Part shown: piece after piece, positions 6,287-59,996 of the stretch
How positions within the stretch are numbered: position 1 is the first letter of the stretch
Layout of the letters: every line of letters starts with the position of its first letter
NCBI RefSeq assembly: GCF_963921235.1
Contig: NC_086097.1
Span: 13,330,001-13,394,000 of the forward strand
Source: Mobula hypostoma
Lineage: Eukaryota
DNA length: 64,000 nt
Reading direction: 5' to 3'
Position numbers and translations under genes: made by a program
Notes under the pieces: generated by a model
What the model was told of the DNA's origin: nothing
The model's database searches: none
What the model saw: only the letters and a program-made list of their open reading frames with translations

Positions 6287-8413
6287 GTGGCCTATCAGCG
6301 GCGTCAACAGAACTTTACCAAGAGGGATTTCTCGCAGATTGGCAGTGGTTATTTAAAAAGGGAGCTTCGAGACCGTTAGTCCATTGTATGTGGCCTATCA
6401 GCAGCTATAACAGGAGCACCAATCGTGAGTTAAATAGCAGGGAAGTTTCAGGCATAAAAGGAAAATACTGCCTAGCAGAGCGATCTTCAAAGCAGTGGAC
6501 ATAGACAGAGTGACCTGAGGCAGAGGAAGGCTTTGGCTCAACAGGGCTTCGACGGTAATGGGTCGAGGTGAGGTAAGTTACTTGTGAAGAATAGGAATAG
6601 GAAGTATGTCTGTGAGGCCAGTGTCTGTACCGTGTGTCAGATGTGGGAAGTCTGGGAGACTCCCAGCCTCCCGGACGGCCACATCTGCACCAGGTGCATT
6701 GAGCTGCAGCTCCTTAGGGACCGGATTAGGGAACTGGAGATGCAGCTCGATGACCTTCGTCTGGTCAGGAAAAGTGAGGAGGTGCTATAGGCAAGTAGTC
6801 ACACTGGGGCCTCAGGAGACAGATAAGTGGGTAACAGTCAGGAGAGGGAAGGACAGGAGTCAGATACCAGAGAGTACTGCTGTGGCTGTCCCCCTTAAAA
6901 ATAAGTACTCCTGTTTGAGTACTGTTGGGGGGGGGCAGCCGACCTAGGGGATGCAACAGTGGCCTCGCCTCTGGCACAAAGTCTGGCCCTGTGGCTCAGA
7001 CAGGTAGGGAAAGGAAGAAGGCAGCAGTGATAGGGGACTCTATAGTTAGGGGTCAGACAGGCAATTCTATGGATGCAGGAAAGAAACACAGATGGTAGTT
7101 TGCCTCCCAGATGCCACGGTGTGGGTTGTTTCTGATAGCATCCATGATATCCTGAAGTAGGAAGGTGAACAGCTAGAGGTCGTGGTACATATTGGTACCA
7201 ACGACATAGGTAGGAAAAGGGAGGAGGTCCTGAAAACAAACTACAGGGAGTTAGGAAGGAAGCTGAGAAGCAGGACCTCAGATGTAGTAATCTCGGGACT
7301 ACTGCCGTTGCCGCATGACAGTGAGTATAGGAATAGAGTGAGGTGAAGGATAAATGCGTGGCTGAGGGCTTGCCCACAGAAGGCAAAGAGTGGTGGTAGA
7401 GGGGTCATATTCTGCATTGAGTTTGGTGACCAGTGATGTCCCTCAGGGATCTGTTCTGGGATCCCTTCTCTCTGCAATTTTTATAAATGACCTGGATGAG
7501 GAAGTGGAGGGATGGGTAAGTAAATCTGCTGATGACACAAAGGTTGGGGGTGTTGTGGATAGTGTGGAGGGCTGTCAGAGGTTACAGTGGGACATCAATA
7601 GAATGCAAAATTGGGCTGAGAAGTGGCAGATGGAGTTCAACCCAGATAAGTGTGATGTAGTTCATTTTGGTAGGTCAAATATGATGGCAGAATATAGCAT
7701 TAACGGCAAGACTCTTGGCAGTGTGGAGGATCAGAGGGATCTTGGGGTCCGAGTCCATAGGACACTCAAAGCTGCTATGCAGGTTGACTCTGTGGTTAAG
7801 AATTGGCCTTCATCAACCATGGGATTGAGTTTAAGAGCCAAGAAGTAATGTTACAGCTATATAAGACCCTGGTCAGACCTCACTTGGAGTACTGTACTCA
7901 GTTCTGGTCACCTCACTACAGGAAGGATGTGCAAACCATAGAAAGGGTGCAGAGGAGATTTACAAGGATTTTGCCTGGATTGGGGAACATGCCTTATGAG
8001 AACAGGTTGAGTGAACTCGGACTTTTCTCCTTGGAGCGACGGAGGATGAGAGATGACCTGATTGAGGTGTTGAAGATGATGAGAGGCATTGATCGTGTGG
8101 ATAGTCAGAGGCTTTTTCCCAGGGCTCAGATAGCGAACATGAGAGGGCACAGTTTTACATGGAAGTAGGTACAGAGGAGATGTCAGGGGTAAGTTTTTTA
8201 CTCAGAGAGTGGTGAGTGTGTGGAATATGCTGCCGGCAATGGTGGTGGAGGTAGATATGATAGGGTCTATTAACAGACTCCTGGATAGGTACATGGAGCT
8301 TAGAAAAATAGAATGCTATGGGTAACCCTAGGTAATTTCTAAGGTAAGGACATATTTGGCACAGCATTGTGGGCTGAAGGGCCTGTATTGTGCTGCAGGT
8401 TTTCTATGTTTCT
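6287..8413 (+). mobile_element. CR1 LINE retaining 5' UTR, ORF1 (CxxC zinc finger + SGNH esterase) and RT C-terminal half, with a large internal deletion
   Basis: ORF1 CTVCQMWE...HICTRC, AAVIGDSIVRG and VVVHIGTNDIG; joins at ~7368 to RT (RRQRVVV, VPQGSVLG, SADDTK, LVRPHLEYC); tail tttctatgtttct. Confidence 0.9.
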
Positions 8414-15991: not shown

Positions 15992-17405
15992 ATAGATACA
16001 ATATATAAATAACACTCAATATAAGCTTGTGAGTGCTTTATAATATGCGTTTCCTCATAACATGCTCGGGGAAAAATCTCTCTGCCTTACCTCTCTTGCT
16101 GTCACGTCAGGCTGTCCTTGTTGTACACTTTCATCATAAAAGCTGTTCCTCTGTCACTCACCCCCATCTGGATGTCTTTGTCATTGACCCCCAAGGAAAG
16201 TGGCCATTAGCCGTGCAGTAGAATTTGGTACCATAAATAATTCATGCCTGATGAATTTAATGAGGCAAGATCCTGCGGAAAGTTTGATACTGCATAGTTA
16301 CATGGTGTAAATCTCGGCCCTTCTCCAAAGGCACCACCCAATTTTCCCTCCTTGCCAGCATCACCACCCCACCCCCTCCGTCCCAGCTGCACGGCAGCAA
16401 GCAAATCAGTTTCATCTTTTCATGGGGGTGGGGTGGAATGTGGTCATTTTTAGCGGCGAGGAGTCGTACGGGTGGAGGTGTGTGGATTTCTATGAGCTTC
16501 TTCGACTTAATGCTTTAACCACATTCTATTTCTTCTCATCCAGATGAAGGATCTCAGCTTGAAATGCCAACAGTCCATTTCCCTCCACAAAGGCTACCTG
16601 ATCCACCAGCAGTTCGTTTTCAGTTCCTTTCTCTTGTGTCTCCTTTCTATACTTCCTTCTTCGTTGAAATGACTCTTTACATAAATATCGAGCAGACCAT
16701 CTGGCAAGTAGATTCTGGACAACCCAGGTTAGCTCTTTGACCGGAACCTCATCACAGTCCTGCTTCCACTTCCCATTCAATGAGCACCTAACATAGTGCT
16801 CACCTTTGTCCCCTCTTGGCTAATTAACTGGACTGTTGTACGTACTGTGTTGTGCACCTTGGTCCTGAGGAACATTGTTTCATTTGGTGGTGAATGACAA
16901 TAAACTTGAACTTGACTTGACTTCAAACCGTGCTGTACAATTCCCTCTATAAGACTGAGATATGATGGCCAAACAGCACACACGTTCTCACGGAATACAG
17001 TCAGCTGTGACCCAGCAGCAGATGGATGAGGGAAGTTGGCAGAAGTGGAACATAGTTGTCAGTAGATGTTTGGATTAGGACAAAGACCAACAGCATTTGT
17101 ACAGTGAGGTCAAAACATATTCACTTTGATGTCTTTATTTTGTTTGAGTTGATTTTGTGTTTGCTTCATGTGTTCCACATCAAACGTCAAGACAATCCCA
17201 CACAGACCATTATCTTGTTTAGCACTGCAGTACAAGGTACAAAGGGGATCCGACTGCACTTTAAGCCTTTAGCTCAATCCTGCAGCTATTAAACACACCT
17301 AAAGGTCACTAACCTACCCCTCTCCAAATCCCAGTGAGGTAACCATGCTCTCCTGTGTTGTTTAACCCTTTACTTAAACACTAATGCCAGGTAATTTAAT
17401 GATTG

Positions 17406-17875
17406 ATGAATAAACTCTTCTTGGCTTCCAGCCAGATACAGATATTGACTTTAACTAACATTTCAGAATCAAAATCAGCTTTATTATTTGATGACAAACT
17501 CTGCCGTCTTCACCAGGGATGACGCCTAGGCATGTCTAGTCCGGTGGCATAGCTGCCCCCATTGTCCATCCTTCCTAATTGGTTAGTCCTCAACCAATCA
17601 GGTTTCTGTTTTCCCATCTTGTTTATAATCAAATTCCAGTTCCTACTTAGAGCAAGACCTTCACCTTGCTTAAAATTCTTTTTCTCTAATTTTATTTTGA
17701 TGGCTTCCTTCAGCCGACGGTTCCAAAAGCCACTGGCGCGGCCCAGTGCTTCTATGCTGTCAAAGTCATTCGTACGGTTATTGTGAACGCAATGATCTGC
17801 TACCGCTGATTTCTCCAGATAACCCAAACGAATACACCTCCTGCGCTCCTTGATGTGGGTTTCCACCGTGCGCCC
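17406..17875 (-). mobile_element. Penelope-like element 3' fragment (GIY-YIG C-terminus and an interrupted hammerhead)
   Basis: ETHIKERRRCIRLG..KSAVADHC..KEAIKIK..NFKQGEG; 3' end homologous to 56627-56908. Confidence 0.8.
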
Positions 17876-18618
17876 CGCTTGTGATTGATGTTGGTAAAGT
17901 TATCAACAGATCTACAGCTAACGTCAAATAACCATACACTGGGTGAGATCAGGTCAGATTCAGATTCACTTATTTATCCAATATACATAAAAACAAGTGT
18001 GTCATTTGCATAACAACCAACACAACCTAAAGATCTTCTGGGGGAAGCCTGTAAGTGTCACCACATTCCTGGCATCGACATAGCATGCCCACATGCTCGG
18101 CAGTGCAACGCAGAACACAGCAAGCAACAAAGCAACAGCAGCAAAACAAACTTATTCCTCCCTCGTACCCCCGCCCCCAATGTAGACAGTCTTCCAGCCC
18201 CAGGACAGGGCTCTGGCCTTCAACAGACAGTGGGCTTCTACCTTTCCCAGTAGACATCAGACTTGTAGGCCCGAATCACCCAAATTCACCTTCACCAAAT
18301 AACAAGCATGCAGCAATCACCACAATCTGTCACCCTTCAGCCCCACAAATGGAATGTTTGTATCTGTGTTTGCCAGGCAATTGGAATTCACTATCGCACA
18401 ATTTATGCCCAATTAACTTCATCTGGAGAGTGGCCATTTGGCTGAGGGGCTGAAGGTAGAGAATATTGGAGAAGCTCATTCCAACTGAGGAGTTGGTACC
18501 TTCACAGTAAGAGGTAAGGGGTGTGGTTTATGCCTGGGAGCTTATTTAAAGCGACATCAGGTTCAACAGCAATGACTTAAGTCTCCTTGGAAAAAAGATC
18601 TGTAACTGGAGACAGAAA

Positions 18619-23630: not shown

Positions 23631-24130
23631 CGTAGCAGGTCTCAGGATTAGGACTGCCAGTCAGAGTAACAGTCCTTCCCCCAGGCTATGAAACTAATGA
23701 ATACCCTGCCACCATCAACATCTGATCACTAGGGAAGTAAACTGTTTACTGTTTATTGCACATGACATGCACTTTGAAATATATTTTGTTAAGCTCTTTG
23801 TTTTATGTGCAGTGTGTGATATATGTTTTTTGGTACACTGTGGTCCTGAGGAACATTGTTTCATTTGGTTGCATGTCTGTACAGTCAGATGACAATAAAC
23901 TTGAATTTGAAACTCAAAATCAAGTGTCAGAGACCTGAAATAGACAGATCGTCATTCTTGTCAGGTGACTGTATATAGCCTGTGCTTTTGCACCAACTTT
24001 TTTACCTACCTTATTAAATATAACGTGAATCATTCATAAGGATGTGTAGGACTGGTCCACGATCACGTCTACTCAATGCGGACCAGTATCTTCTAAGAGT
24101 CCTAAAATAGACAAGAAACACCTTAGCGAC

Positions 24131-24362
24131 ATACACAAACTCCTGGGGGAGCTCAGCAGGTCAGGCACCATCTATGGAGAGGAATAAAGAGTAAAGTACT
24201 GAGAATTTGGGCCGAGACCCTTCATCAGGACAGACCGAACACCTTGGCCTGAAATGTTGGCTTTTTATTCCTCTACATAGACATTGCCTGACCAGCTGAG
24301 TTCCTCCAGCACTTTGAGTGAGTTACTCTGGATTTCTAGCCTCTGCAAAGTCTCTTCTGTTT
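24131..24362. mobile_element. Head-to-head inverted pair of Penelope-like 3' ends
   Basis: Left arm gctcagcaggtcaggca..ggaataaa..ggccgagacccttcatcagga; right arm ttggcctgaaatgttgg..tttattcct..tgcctgaccagctgagttcc. Confidence 0.7.
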
Positions 24363-50039: not shown

Positions 50040-50475
50040 GCCATAAGACTAGAATACATAGGAGCACAATGATGCCACTCGGCCCATCAAGTCTGATTCA
50101 CCATTCCATCATGACTGATTTATTATCCCTCTCAACCCCATTCTCCTGCCTTCTTCCCATAACCTTTGACTCCCTGATTAATCAAGAACCTATCAACTTC
50201 TACCTTAAATATAGCCAACGGCTTGGCAACCATAGCTATATGTGGCAATGAATTCCATAGATTCACCACCGTCTGGCTAAAGAACTTCCTCCTCATCCTG
50301 CTTCTAAATGGATATCCATCAATTTTGAGGCTTCTTCTTCCGGTCTTAGACTCACCCAATATAGAAAACATCCTCTCCACACTCACTCGTCTTTCAGTAT
50401 TCAATGTTTTAATAAGATCTCCCCTCATTCTTCGAAATTCCAGCAAGTGCAGGACCAGAGCCATGAAACATTCGA
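50040..50475 (-). mobile_element. CR1 3' fragment
   Basis: LEFRRMRGDLI..FFSQTVVNLWNSLP..GYGKKAGEWG. Confidence 0.85.
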
Positions 50476-50496
50476 ACTTGACAAATTTGAGATTTT

Positions 50497-50873
50497 CCCA
50501 GTCCTGATGAAGGATCTCAGCACAAAATATCAACTGTTTAGTCCTTTTCCCAGATGCTGCTGGACCTGCTGAGTTCCTCCGACACTTTGTGTGTGTTGCT
50601 CTGGACTTCCAGCATCTGCAGGATCTCGTGTGTTGTCCATTCTATTTTATTTTCAAAATTTGTTTGCACTGAATTGCTTCTCTTTCTGTCTTTGTTGTAT
50701 AATTTTAATTCTAAGTAATGAATAAGGAAAGGTAAATTTAAACATGGGGAAATCTGCAGATGCTGCAAATCCAGAGAAACACACACAAACTGCTGGAGGA
50801 ACTCAGCAGATCAGTCAGCATCTATAGAAATGAATAAGTAGTGACGATTCAGGCCGAGACCATTCTTCAGGTT
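50497..50873. mobile_element. Tail-to-tail inverted pair of Penelope-like 3' ends with degenerate hammerheads
   Basis: Plus-strand arm 50497-50634 begins cagtcCTGATGA; minus-strand arm 50741-50873 reads CTGAAGA..GAATCGTC. Confidence 0.7.
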
Positions 50874-50959
50874 AAGTGAGCTTGCTGATAGGATTTGTGA
50901 GGGAAAGGGTTTTTGAAGCCTGGTGGATAAGTTACTGGACTAACAGGCAATTTTTTATC

Positions 50960-55470: not shown

Positions 55471-56280
55471 AACAACCTAAGCCTGAATGTGAAGAAGACC
55501 AAGGAAATCAGTGTGGAACTCAGGAAGGTGAGACCAACCATCTCCCTCTGCAAACACATGGCTCCTCCATAGAGAGAGTTAAGAGCACCAAGTTCACATC
55601 ATGGATGACCTCACCTGGTCCCTTAATATCACCTCCCCGAACAAGAAGGCATAACAGTGCCTTCACTTCCTAAGAAGACTGAGGCAAGCAAGGCTTCCCC
55701 CCCCCCCCCCATCTTAACTGTGTTGTACAGGAGCATCATTGAGAGCGTCCTGACAAGTTGCATCTCTATCTGGCATGGGAGCAGTCAAGCACCAGATCAG
55801 AAGTCCCAACAAAGGACTGTGAGAACAGCTGAGTGGATCATAGGGGTCTCCCCACCATCCATGGCATTTATTAGGAGCACTGCATACACAGCCCCTTGGT
55901 ATTATTAAGGATCCCACCCATCCACCCAGCATCCTATTTGACTTCCTATCATCAGGCAGGAGACTACGATGCATAAGAACAAGAATAGTTAGAACGAGAA
56001 ACAGTTTATTCCTCCAGGCCATTAGGCTTCTGAGCTCCTGGCCGCATCATATTTGAAGTGCCACTGTTTAATCTGTTCCATACCTTACAATATTTAATAT
56101 TAATGCACTTGAGATTGTTATTTATGTGTGATTTATCTATACCTTTTATCCTGACCTTTATAAGTTACCTGTGCTAGGTGTATTATGTGTACCTGTTACT
56201 GTGCCTTTCACCCTGGTTTGAAAAAATGTTGTCTCATTTCTATATACATTATATGGTTATATATATTTATACAAGTATAT
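55471..56280 (+). mobile_element. Rex1/Babar-like 3' fragment
   Basis: NNLSLNVKKTKEI, LYRSIIESVLTSCISIW, KDPTHP. Confidence 0.8.
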
Positions 56281-56289
56281 AGTATAGAT

Positions 56290-56908
56290 CTAGTTTTATT
56301 TCAATGGCTTCCTTCATCAGATGGTCCCAAAAGCCATTGGTGTGTCACAGTAGTTTTGTGCCATCAATGTCAAACCTATGACCATCGTGAATGCAGTGTT
56401 CTGCTACCGCCGCTTGTCTCCGTGTAACCCAAATGGATACATCTCCTGTGCTCCTTGATGCAGGTTTCCGCCGTGCACCCTGTGTGGGCTGCTCTGCATT
56501 CACTGGGAATCCTGTAAATGTCAGGCAACCTGAGCCCCAGGTCATCACTGACTCACAGAAACTGTGACCTGAACTTCCTTGCAGGTTTGTGGATGGTATT
56601 AATCTGGTATTTCTTCAGCATTCATCGAAAGGAAGCCATTGAAATAAAAGTAGAGGAAAAGAATTTTAACAAAGGCGAAAGGCTCGGTCTAAGCAAGAAC
56701 TGGAATTCAATTGTAAATAAGGTGCAAGAGCACAAATCTGATTGGATGAGGACTAACCAATGAGGAGAGACAGCCTACAGAGGTATAAATTCCACTAGAT
56801 TAGACGTCCCCATACATCATCCCTGATGAAGATGGCAAAGTCTGTCATCGAAACGTCGGTTATAATTGATACCCCTACTGGCTAGAAGCCCAAGAAGAGA
56901 TTACTCGT
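56290..56908 (+). mobile_element. Penelope-like element with an inverted 5' segment (56290-56624 minus, 56627-56908 plus)
   Basis: Minus segment encodes LKKYQINTIHKP..DDLGLR..DIYRIPSEC..IKEHRRCI..KEAIEIK; plus segment encodes KEAIEIKVEEKNFNKGE, then the 3' UTR. Confidence 0.8.
56816..56870 (+). ncRNA. Minimal type I hammerhead ribozyme motif
   Basis: cc-CTGATGA (56823-56829)-a-GATGGCA aagtc TGTCATC-GAAAC-GTC (56855-56857)-gg; complete core, 7-bp stem II, palindromic ACGT stem III, short stem I. Confidence 0.7.
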
Positions 56909-57288
56909 AAAGGATTTGCCTTCTCGTTGAGTGTTTCCTACATTTTGATATTGATGCTTCTCTGAAACTGAAAGCTAAATTTCCAAGGCATTTGTCAAAT
57001 CCTAGTGATGAAATATAAAATTAAAGTTTAAATTATTTTAATCCTACCTTAAGATACTATTTTGCTTGTTTAGAATCTTGTGGGGTTTAAATGACCTGAA
57101 GCAATAATTATAAATCCATGTTAAGATTAGTTGACCAATTCCATACCCTTGGAAAAAGGGGTAGTGTCTCTGCAAATTTGTATGGCAGAGAGAGCATTGT
57201 TATGTTGTCAGTCTTGCCATGGTCCCATTCTGCAGAATTCCACTTGTACACTTCATGCATTAAGTGACAGTCTGGACTGGCTGTGATC

Positions 57289-58092: not shown

Positions 58093-59996
58093 GGGTGGTG
58101 TGGTGGGGAGGTTGGTGGAGATATGTCTCTACCAAAGAAGATGTAAGGTGCTCCTTCCATCCGCTAGCCTGCAGGTCACCCTCGGGCACAGCGTAAAACA
58201 TTAACCCCTCCCCCCACCCCCCCATCAGGGCCACGTGAAGCGATAGGAGCAGGTGATGGTCATATGAGCAGTTGGTGCATATAGGAACATAGAAAACCTA
58301 CAGCACAATATAGGCCCTATGGCCTACAAAGTTGTGCCGAACCTTAGAAATGACTAAGCTTACCCATAGCCCTCTATTTTTCTAAGCTCCATGCACCTAT
58401 CCAAAAGTCTCTTAAAAGACCCTATCGTATCCACCCCCACCACCGTTGCTGGCAGCCCATTCCACACACTCACCACTCTCTGAGTAAAAAACTTACCCCT
58501 GACATCTCCTGTGTACCTACTCCCCAGCACCTTAAACCTGTGTCATCTTGTGGCAACCATTTCAGCTCTGGGAAAAAGCCTCTGACTATTCACACGATCA
58601 ATGCCTCTCATCATCTTATACACCTCTATCAGGTCACCTCTCATCCTCCATGGCTGTAAGGAGAAAAGGCTGAGTTCATTCAACCTATTCTCATAAGGCA
58701 TGCTCCCCAATCAAGGCAACATCCTTGTAAATCTCCTCTGCACCCTTTCTATGGTTTCCACATGCTTCCTGTAGTGAGGCAACCAGAACTGAGCAAGTAC
58801 TCCAAGTGGTGTCTGACCAGAGTCCTATATAGCTGGAACATTACCTCTCGGTTCCTGAACTCAATCCCATGGTTGATGAAGGCCAATGCACCATATGCTT
58901 TCTTAACCACAGAGTCAACCTGCACAGCTGCTTTGAGTGTCCTATGGACTTGGACCCCAAGGTTCCTCTGATCCTCCACACTGCCAAGAGTCTTACCATT
59001 AATACTATATTCTGCCATCATATTTGACCTACCAAAATGAACCACTTCACACTTATCTGGGTTGAATTCCATCTGCCACTTCTCAGCCCAGTTTTGCATC
59101 CTATCAATGTCCCGCTGTAACCTCTGACAGCCCTCCACACTATTCAGAACACCTCCAACCTTTGTGTCATCAGCAAACTTACTAACCCATTCCTCCACTT
59201 CCTCATCCAGGTCATTTATAAAAATCACGAAGAGTAAGGGTCCCAGAACAGATCCCTGAGCACACCACTGGTCACCGACCTTCATGCAGAATATGACCCG
59301 CCTACAACCACTCTTTGCCTTCTGTGGGCAAGCTATTTCTGGATCCACAAAACAATGTCCCTTGGATCCCATGCCTCCTTACTTTCTCAATAGGCCTTGC
59401 ATGGGGTACCTTATCAAATGCCTTGCTGAAATCCATATACACTATATCTACTGCTCTTCCTTCATCAATGTGTTTAGTCACATCCTCAAAAAATTCAATC
59501 AGGCTCGTAAGGCATGACCTGCCCTTGACAAAGCCATGCTGCCTATTTCTAATCATATTATACCTCTCCAAATGTTCATAAATCTTGCCTCTCACGATCT
59601 TCTTCTCCATCAACTTACCAACCACTGAAGTAAGACTCACTGGTCTATAACTTCCTGGGCTCTCTCTACTCCCTTTCTTGAATAAAGGAAACCTCCAATC
59701 CACTGAAACCTCTCCCGTCCCCACTGATGACGCAAAGATTAGCGCCAGAGGCTCAGCAATCTCCTCCCTCACCTCCCACAGTAGCCTGGGATACACCTCA
59801 TCTGGTCCTGGCGACTTATCCACAAGTTCTGGTTATGCAAACACTGATGCTAGGCAAACAATCTGTGAAGAGTATTGATATTGCTGGGGTCACCCATCTT
59901 GTAAAGACACTGCCCAGAAGGCCACTTCTATTGAAAAATTTGCCAAGAACCATCATGATTGCCCACATCATACGATAAGGCACGTCATGAACGAAC
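58093..59996 (+). mobile_element. RTE/BovA-like short retroposon split by a CR1 (pieces 58093-58282 and 59821-59996)
   Basis: Joined pieces align with the intact copy at 62121-62505 across gtgcatat|cacaa. Confidence 0.7.
58283..59822 (-). mobile_element. CR1 LINE, 5'-truncated RT and 3' UTR
   Basis: DKSPGPDEVYPRLL, YMDFSKAFDKVPH, QGSVLGPLLF, FADDTK; same subfamily as the RT half at 7368-8413. Confidence 0.92.

Follow-up and report, generated by a model that had tools for sequence, protein, structure and literature searches.

Minimal hammerhead ribozymes (min-HHRs) of metazoan Penelope-like elements (PLEs) were described by Cervera & de la Peña 2014 (PMC4209133). The min-HHR of Schistosoma mansoni was reported in that work to be inactive as a monomer and weakly active as a dimer. 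A second relevant system is PAc, a Poseidon element from Anolis carolinensis (Frangieh et al. 2024; PMC11167929), whose hammerhead cleaves only in the presence of protein, at a site 26 bp past the start codon. Type I hammerheads derived from PLE pseudo-LTRs are also found in non-LTR retrozymes, which have been reported from one chondrichthyan genome (Li et al. 2026, bioRxiv 10.64898/2026.07.22.740005). The in vivo role of PLE hammerheads has been called unresolved (PMC7761336, PMC8557442). No cartilaginous-fish entry was found in Table S1 or in the available part of Fig. S3 of PMC4209133, and the 2026 retrozyme preprint, with one chondrichthyan sampled, was the only published cartilaginous-fish account that a limited open-access search returned.

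The locus described here lies in a stretch of DNA of 64,000 nucleotides, all of which was analysed and which is referred to below as the window. Its hammerhead core begins at position 56823. As in the PLE min-HHRs of PMC4209133, the motif consists of CUGANGA with an extra nucleotide, a G10.1-C11.1 pair, a 7-bp helix II, GAAA and a palindrome at 15.2-16.2 with no helix III; its helix I is likewise short, and it is situated in the 3′ pseudo-LTR of a truncated PLE, past the endonuclease. Helix I has 2 bp here, in contrast to the usual 3–5 bp (PMC4209133), and the Culex min-HHR shares both this CC/GG helix I of 2 bp and the CGUC (PMC4209133, supplement). Each testable sequence feature of the class is present, and the motif is of a known kind. 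The first-pass annotation had identified it as a minimal type I hammerhead in a Penelope-like pseudo-LTR, and that identification holds on the basis of the structural descriptor, tblastn and PMC4209133.

The locus resembles PAc in layout, as far as the published description allows them to be likened, with the hammerhead placed over the start codon and 26 nt between AUG and cut (PMC11167929). Unlike PAc, which is active, full-length and tested in vitro (PMC11167929), it is a decayed fragment of 620 bp. It also differs from the non-LTR retrozymes, described as non-coding tandem repeats, in being a solo copy with GIY-YIG coding remnants; tandem non-coding hammerhead units are absent at the locus. 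Taken together, the data presented below make it very probable that an old, non-autonomous, 5′-truncated and 5′-inverted Penelope/Poseidon-type copy carries this min-HHR in its 3′ pseudo-LTR, and that the copy is a neutral relic unlikely to cleave in vivo.

Anatomy of the motif

The core from C3 to A9 (CUGAUGA) occupies positions 56823–56829 and is followed by one extra A at 56830. Helix II is formed by GAUGGCA (56831–56837) and UGUCAUC (56843–56849), which give 7 bp, including one G-U pair, closed by a 5-nt loop; the closing pair of this longer-than-canonical helix is G10.1-C11.1, a feature of the class. GAAAC (56850–56854) and GUC (56855–56857) come next, so that CUGANGA, the extra nucleotide, GAAA and NUH are all present. 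Helix III is represented by the palindrome ACGU alone (56853–56856), and a stable helix III is absent, as is the case for the PLE class. Helix I comprises CC (56821–56822) and GG (56858–56859), with a U-U mismatch next to it, and the topology is that of type I. The core, extra A, helix II, GAAAC, GUC and helix I listed in the first-pass annotation agree with this reading base for base, as does the cleavage predicted, from the layout of the motif, after C56857. AUCA (56816–56819) and UGAU (56867–56870) also exist, but pairing them leaves a 1×7 internal loop. The features of the locus and of related repeats are collected in Table 1.

Table 1. Positions of the hammerhead motif, its host insertion and related repeats in the window
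Feature	Position	Strand	Basis or remark
Minimal type I hammerhead motif	56821..56859	+	Base-by-base reading, descriptor, folding; predicted cut after 56857
In-frame AUGs (56826, 56832) and ORF start MKM...ETS	56826..56885	+	Stop reached in this copy
Inverted 5′ arm: RT-EN linker plus remnant of GIY-YIG, interrupted by stops and a frameshift	56289..56618	-	tblastn, translations, contig divergence
10-nt filler at inversion point, matching neither family arm	56619..56628		Contig loose ends (56618, 56629)
Direct arm: GIY-YIG C-terminus (KEAIEIK...NWN) to stop codon	56629..56763	+	tblastn, sequence comparison
Promoter-like boxes of pseudo-LTR: ATTGG 56741, CCAAT 56757, TATAAAT 56784	56741..56790	+	Putative function
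Element 3′ end	56860..56909	+	Copy-2 alignment, family depth; end approximate, 78 nt past AUG
Second copy of the same family (copy 2)	17405..17899	-	76–77% identical; hammerhead disrupted by A6>G and by 25 nt inserted ahead of GAAA
Copies of the other hammerhead-bearing repeat family	4941(-), ~16540(+), 18933(+), 19373(-), 24229(-), 39947(+), 50504(+), 50872(-)		Aligned

The host insertion

The motif resides in the 3′ pseudo-LTR of an insertion of ~620 bp, a 5′-truncated and 5′-inverted copy of Penelope/Poseidon type in which the GIY-YIG remnant carries a frameshift. No RT is left in this copy (56289–56909). Matches of PLE proteins to the inverted arm were obtained by tblastn in frames -3 and -1, with an E value of about 9e-22 and identities of 45–49%. 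The linker and the N-terminal half of GIY-YIG matched the minus strand from 56289 to 56621, and the C-terminal part matched the plus strand from 56626. This division of the matches between strands indicates that the insertion consists of a 5′ arm in inverted orientation, then 10 nt of filler, then a direct arm; family contigs part from the window sequence at 56289 and 56618. PLEs are described as often having inverted, 5′-truncated segments (PMC8557442).

The first 26 nt of the direct arm, from 56629, are an inverted duplicate of 56289–56314. The filler has ATTCATC in common with the family 3′ end as seen in copy 2, and it may have been templated from the RT start region. A GIY-YIG C-terminus upstream of the motif, which the first-pass annotation had reported, was borne out by tblastn, and the hammerhead lies 191 nt downstream of the EAIEI codons of that C-terminus. 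No target-site duplication was found, the longest common word being 6 nt and situated away from the junctions. A Pfam search of three decayed fragments gave no GIY-YIG match and only two sub-threshold chance hits. No feature specific to a Penelope/Poseidon clade was present in the ~35 linker residues that are kept, nor in the long homologues P0004, P0022 and P0028. The left flank (~56190–56288) belongs to another high-copy repeat, of which it is the AT-rich tail, as judged from its high contig depth.

The element family

Abundance of the family was surveyed with Logan contigs matched at 80% likeness, in three DNA runs with three species labels. The matching records numbered 8194, 8213 and 7694, which denotes a very abundant family, although depth is not copy number. 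Contig depth was high across the element and fell to zero or to the single-copy level beyond about 56925 (zero in run X1). Contigs of run X21, which is RNA by guess only, match the family and not the 56816–56870 locus, and therefore have no bearing on expression of the locus. In organism D, the left junction, the inversion junction and 56819–57047 are each covered by single low-depth contigs; since all three junctions are spanned, the insertion is probably older than the split from that organism.

Within 56816–56870, the differences from the family majority among the 40 rows listed (there are 146 more) are at 56838 and 56842, both in loop II. At these two positions more than 90% of the depth carries letters that are also found in copy 2. 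Among the listed rows, and with the consensus read indirectly from the difference table, the family core appears to fit that of the 56823 copy. At least one further majority change (56814) is implied by the loose ends and falls outside the 40 rows. The loose-end consensus has C at 56867 (12 contigs, agreement 0.57), and copy 2 reads TCAAT. The family thus probably has a CpG at 56867, and for these two reasons the UGAU of the 56816–56870 copy would be a CpG-decay product of one copy. The extension of stem I by AUCA/UGAU, which had been suggested earlier, is not supported as a family feature.

The 128-aa ORF of copy 2 gave 382 protein matches at E≤1e-3. Among the 16 matches scanned, RVT_1 was found in three long ones, and weak GIY-YIG matches were found in four. 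The named matches were from insects, apart from one in the stingray Hypanus sabinus (55% identity), which suggests that the host of the family is probably a cartilaginous fish. A word-indexed protein search for longer homologues produced 156 candidates, none of which scored, and the exact pseudo-LTR pattern had no match in metagenome and viral contigs.

Predicted folding and cleavage

The minimum free energy (MFE) fold of the monomer, at -14.0 kcal/mol, keeps helix II, but CUGAUG pairs with CGUCGG and the core is buried. The hammerhead-like fold scores -8.5, and the probability of helix I is about 0.003, which is thermodynamically negligible in the monomer. Helix II has a pair probability of 0.99 in a 66-nt fragment and of about 0.3 with the upstream sequence. 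These values come from nearest-neighbour folding, which leaves core tertiary contacts out of account. Co-folding of the dimer, a weak test for the same reason, paired the segment 3′ of the cut into a duplex and did not produce a catalytic dimer. The 16 nt from the cleavage triplet onwards (56855–56870) form a nearly self-complementary stretch, which dominates the fold predicted for the dimer; it could act as a competing hairpin.

Since a stable helix III is lacking and helix I has 2 bp, cleavage would need a second hammerhead and/or the element’s own protein. No intact hammerhead partner in cis was found within 64 kb, and the one further family member in the window is in inverted orientation at a distance of 39 kb, with its hammerhead broken. 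Little or no cleavage by the 56823 copy would be expected in place. Published min-HHRs show no activity as monomers and only weak activity as dimers (PMC4209133).

In an active tandem element, the pseudo-LTR promoter would, judging from the position of the TATA box, start a transcript just upstream of the motif. The motif would extend over the ORF start and be cut 26 nt past the AUG, and cleavage would proceed through a second hammerhead pairing via ACGU and/or through the element’s own protein, as has been shown in other PLEs and is presumed here. In the solo copy, which has neither a downstream ORF nor a partner in cis, the core would have survived by chance.

Distant relatives and the start codon

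An endonuclease profile search of metagenome contigs yielded 80 loci with 28–38% protein identity, presumably host-insect DNA; nothing was found in viral or prokaryote genome contigs. At least 450 nt of downstream sequence were available for 55 of the 80 loci. The strict descriptor detected no hammerhead within 450 nt in these 55, because position 3 of the core is not C in the relatives. A homologous motif, GCC-U-(A/U)-UGAAGAU followed by helix II and GAAA, was present in 30 of the 55, with A or U at position 3 in all 30; L071 is the one motif-bearing locus without helix II. Sites of the variant (e.g. L002:627-674, L012:549-596 and L046:1669-1716) have an extra U before position 3 and are missed by standard descriptors. 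No report of the position-3 variant was found in a limited search of the open-access literature. In many related loci TATAA occurs 47–57 nt ahead of the core.

Equal spacing (a helix and loop of 19 nt) was shared by 21 of the 30 motif-bearing loci. Pairs of helix II were counted ungapped in these 21, as MAFFT had misaligned the target against the relatives. Pairs 1 to 6 were held in 21, 20, 20, 19, 18 and 15 of the 21, respectively, and pair 7 was not conserved (1/21). In pairs 2–5 both sides differ from the 56823 copy and pairing is retained. As the relatives are distant, were picked for equal spacing and do not have C3, this covariation is to be read as compensation between two lineages and not as many independent events.

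The distance from the AUG at 56832 to C56857 is 26 nt. That it is exactly the distance found in PAc supports a conserved coupling of ribozyme and start codon. Counted from its first AUG, the MKM...ETS frame of the 56823 copy runs for 19 codons before a stop. Among 21 relatives, 18 keep this frame open over 25 codons, versus 4 for one other frame; the count of 0/21 for the third frame is forced, because that frame starts with the core’s own UGA.

A hammerhead over the start codon might act, across Poseidon-type elements, as a feedback switch triggered by protein, although this is rather unlikely on the present data. At rest, the RNA would be in an off fold, with CUGAUG paired with CGUCGG, and would be translated. 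Binding of the element’s own protein would then refold the core, the RNA would be cut 26 nt past the AUG, and loss of the cap and start codon would end its translation. The footprint of such a switch would be an MKM...ETS frame running through the core in the family and in distant relatives, some with C3->A and a new AUG. The model is not stated in the available text of PMC11167929 or PMC4209133, and if it were true the 56823 copy would be a fossil witness only.

The same overlap could be taken to mean that cleavage is no longer what the family motif is selected for, and that its retention is due to its role as the coding start of the ORF and as a hairpin serving protein binding or translation. 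This proposal accommodates the fact that GAAACGUCG translates in frame as E-T-S, the open frame in 18/21 relatives and the replacement of C at position 3, where A creates an in-frame AUG (the MKM start). It is also in keeping with PAc, in which transposition in vitro persists in hammerhead mutants and RNA-seq reads ending at the cut are absent (PMC11167929). Against this, both window copies have a canonical C3-G8, part of which falls upstream of the AUG, helix II has been retained by double changes between lineages, and the rescue of PAc by C3G/G8C reflects true hammerhead chemistry (PMC11167929). Loss of selection for cleavage in favour of a coding or hairpin function is accordingly given a low probability.

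Neutral survival and uniqueness of the copy

It was of interest to weigh the intact core against neutral decay. Each family copy differs from the consensus by about 13%, and 10 of 31 CpG-like sites outside the core are intact. Retention of all three core CpGs in the 56823 copy is by itself an event of about 3%. For the core and helix I together (three CpGs and 14 other positions), neutral survival was estimated, roughly, at 0.2–6%, with a central value of about 1.2%. Some 12 intact copies per 1000 are therefore expected under neutrality (range 2–61), and the chance of at least one intact copy among the 10 hammerhead-type copies in the window is 2–47%.

Purifying selection could in principle have held this copy as a working ribozyme, i.e. 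by exaptation, for example to cut a host transcript passing through the locus. The intact core, core CpGs and helix II are what this would predict when about two-thirds of the CpG-like sites elsewhere have decayed, and the insertion appears to be shared with other species labels, as mentioned above for organism D. The copy was, of course, chosen post hoc from a family of thousands, and because it was picked for being intact, its intact core is no evidence for selection when a dozen per thousand would be intact neutrally. The buried core of the monomer fold and the lack of an intact partner within 64 kb likewise argue against exaptation. No host gene was seen: 6 of the 64 window ORFs of at least 100 aa match Pfam, all with retroelement domains (short exons are missed by such a scan). 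Exaptation is thus considered highly improbable.

The neutral relic remains the preferred reading. The first-pass annotation had implied a special status for the 56823 copy, which is not supported, given the sufficiency of neutral survival, the lack of a tandem partner and the predicted misfolding of the monomer. The single locus is a relic of little weight by itself: the motif is of a described kind, and its copies run into the thousands. Its layout equals exactly that of the one biochemically tested Poseidon element.

The strict structural descriptor detected two full cores in 64 kb, at 56823 and 39947. With a helix I of at least 2 bp required, only 56823 was retained, as 39947 has lost the 3′ arm through a deletion. 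A relaxed descriptor, in which any 3–8 pair was allowed, again found only 56823, and the earlier claim that this is the one copy in the window with all core nucleotides and a pairable stem I is therefore confirmed. The Rfam hammerhead covariance models gave no match, even at E≤10 on a 300-nt piece. Lack of an Rfam match would be expected for loop-less variants.

The form with a palindromic helix III had no match in 300 dinucleotide shuffles of the 64 kb. The loose descriptor gave 0.12 matches per dinucleotide shuffle, and the bare CTGANGA..GAAA pattern is weakly enriched in the window (12 observed versus 6.2 expected). A chance match to a short motif, for which the Rfam result and a fold z-score of only about -2 might be cited, has a negligible probability given the shuffles, and it is already refuted by context, i.e. 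the expected place of the motif in a PLE pseudo-LTR and its presence, though broken, in copy 2.

Other repeats in the window

A second and more abundant family of hammerhead-bearing repeats is present in the window, with a helix II of 4–5 bp and, in the consensus, a helix I of about 5 bp. Damage to the core or to helix I was seen in each of the eight copies aligned. Head-to-head pairs of this repeat type occur at 24125–24330 and 50469–50906. Two LINE-like RT fragments, at 7442–8358 and 58327–59260, are in opposite orientation and up to 92% alike over 361 nt.
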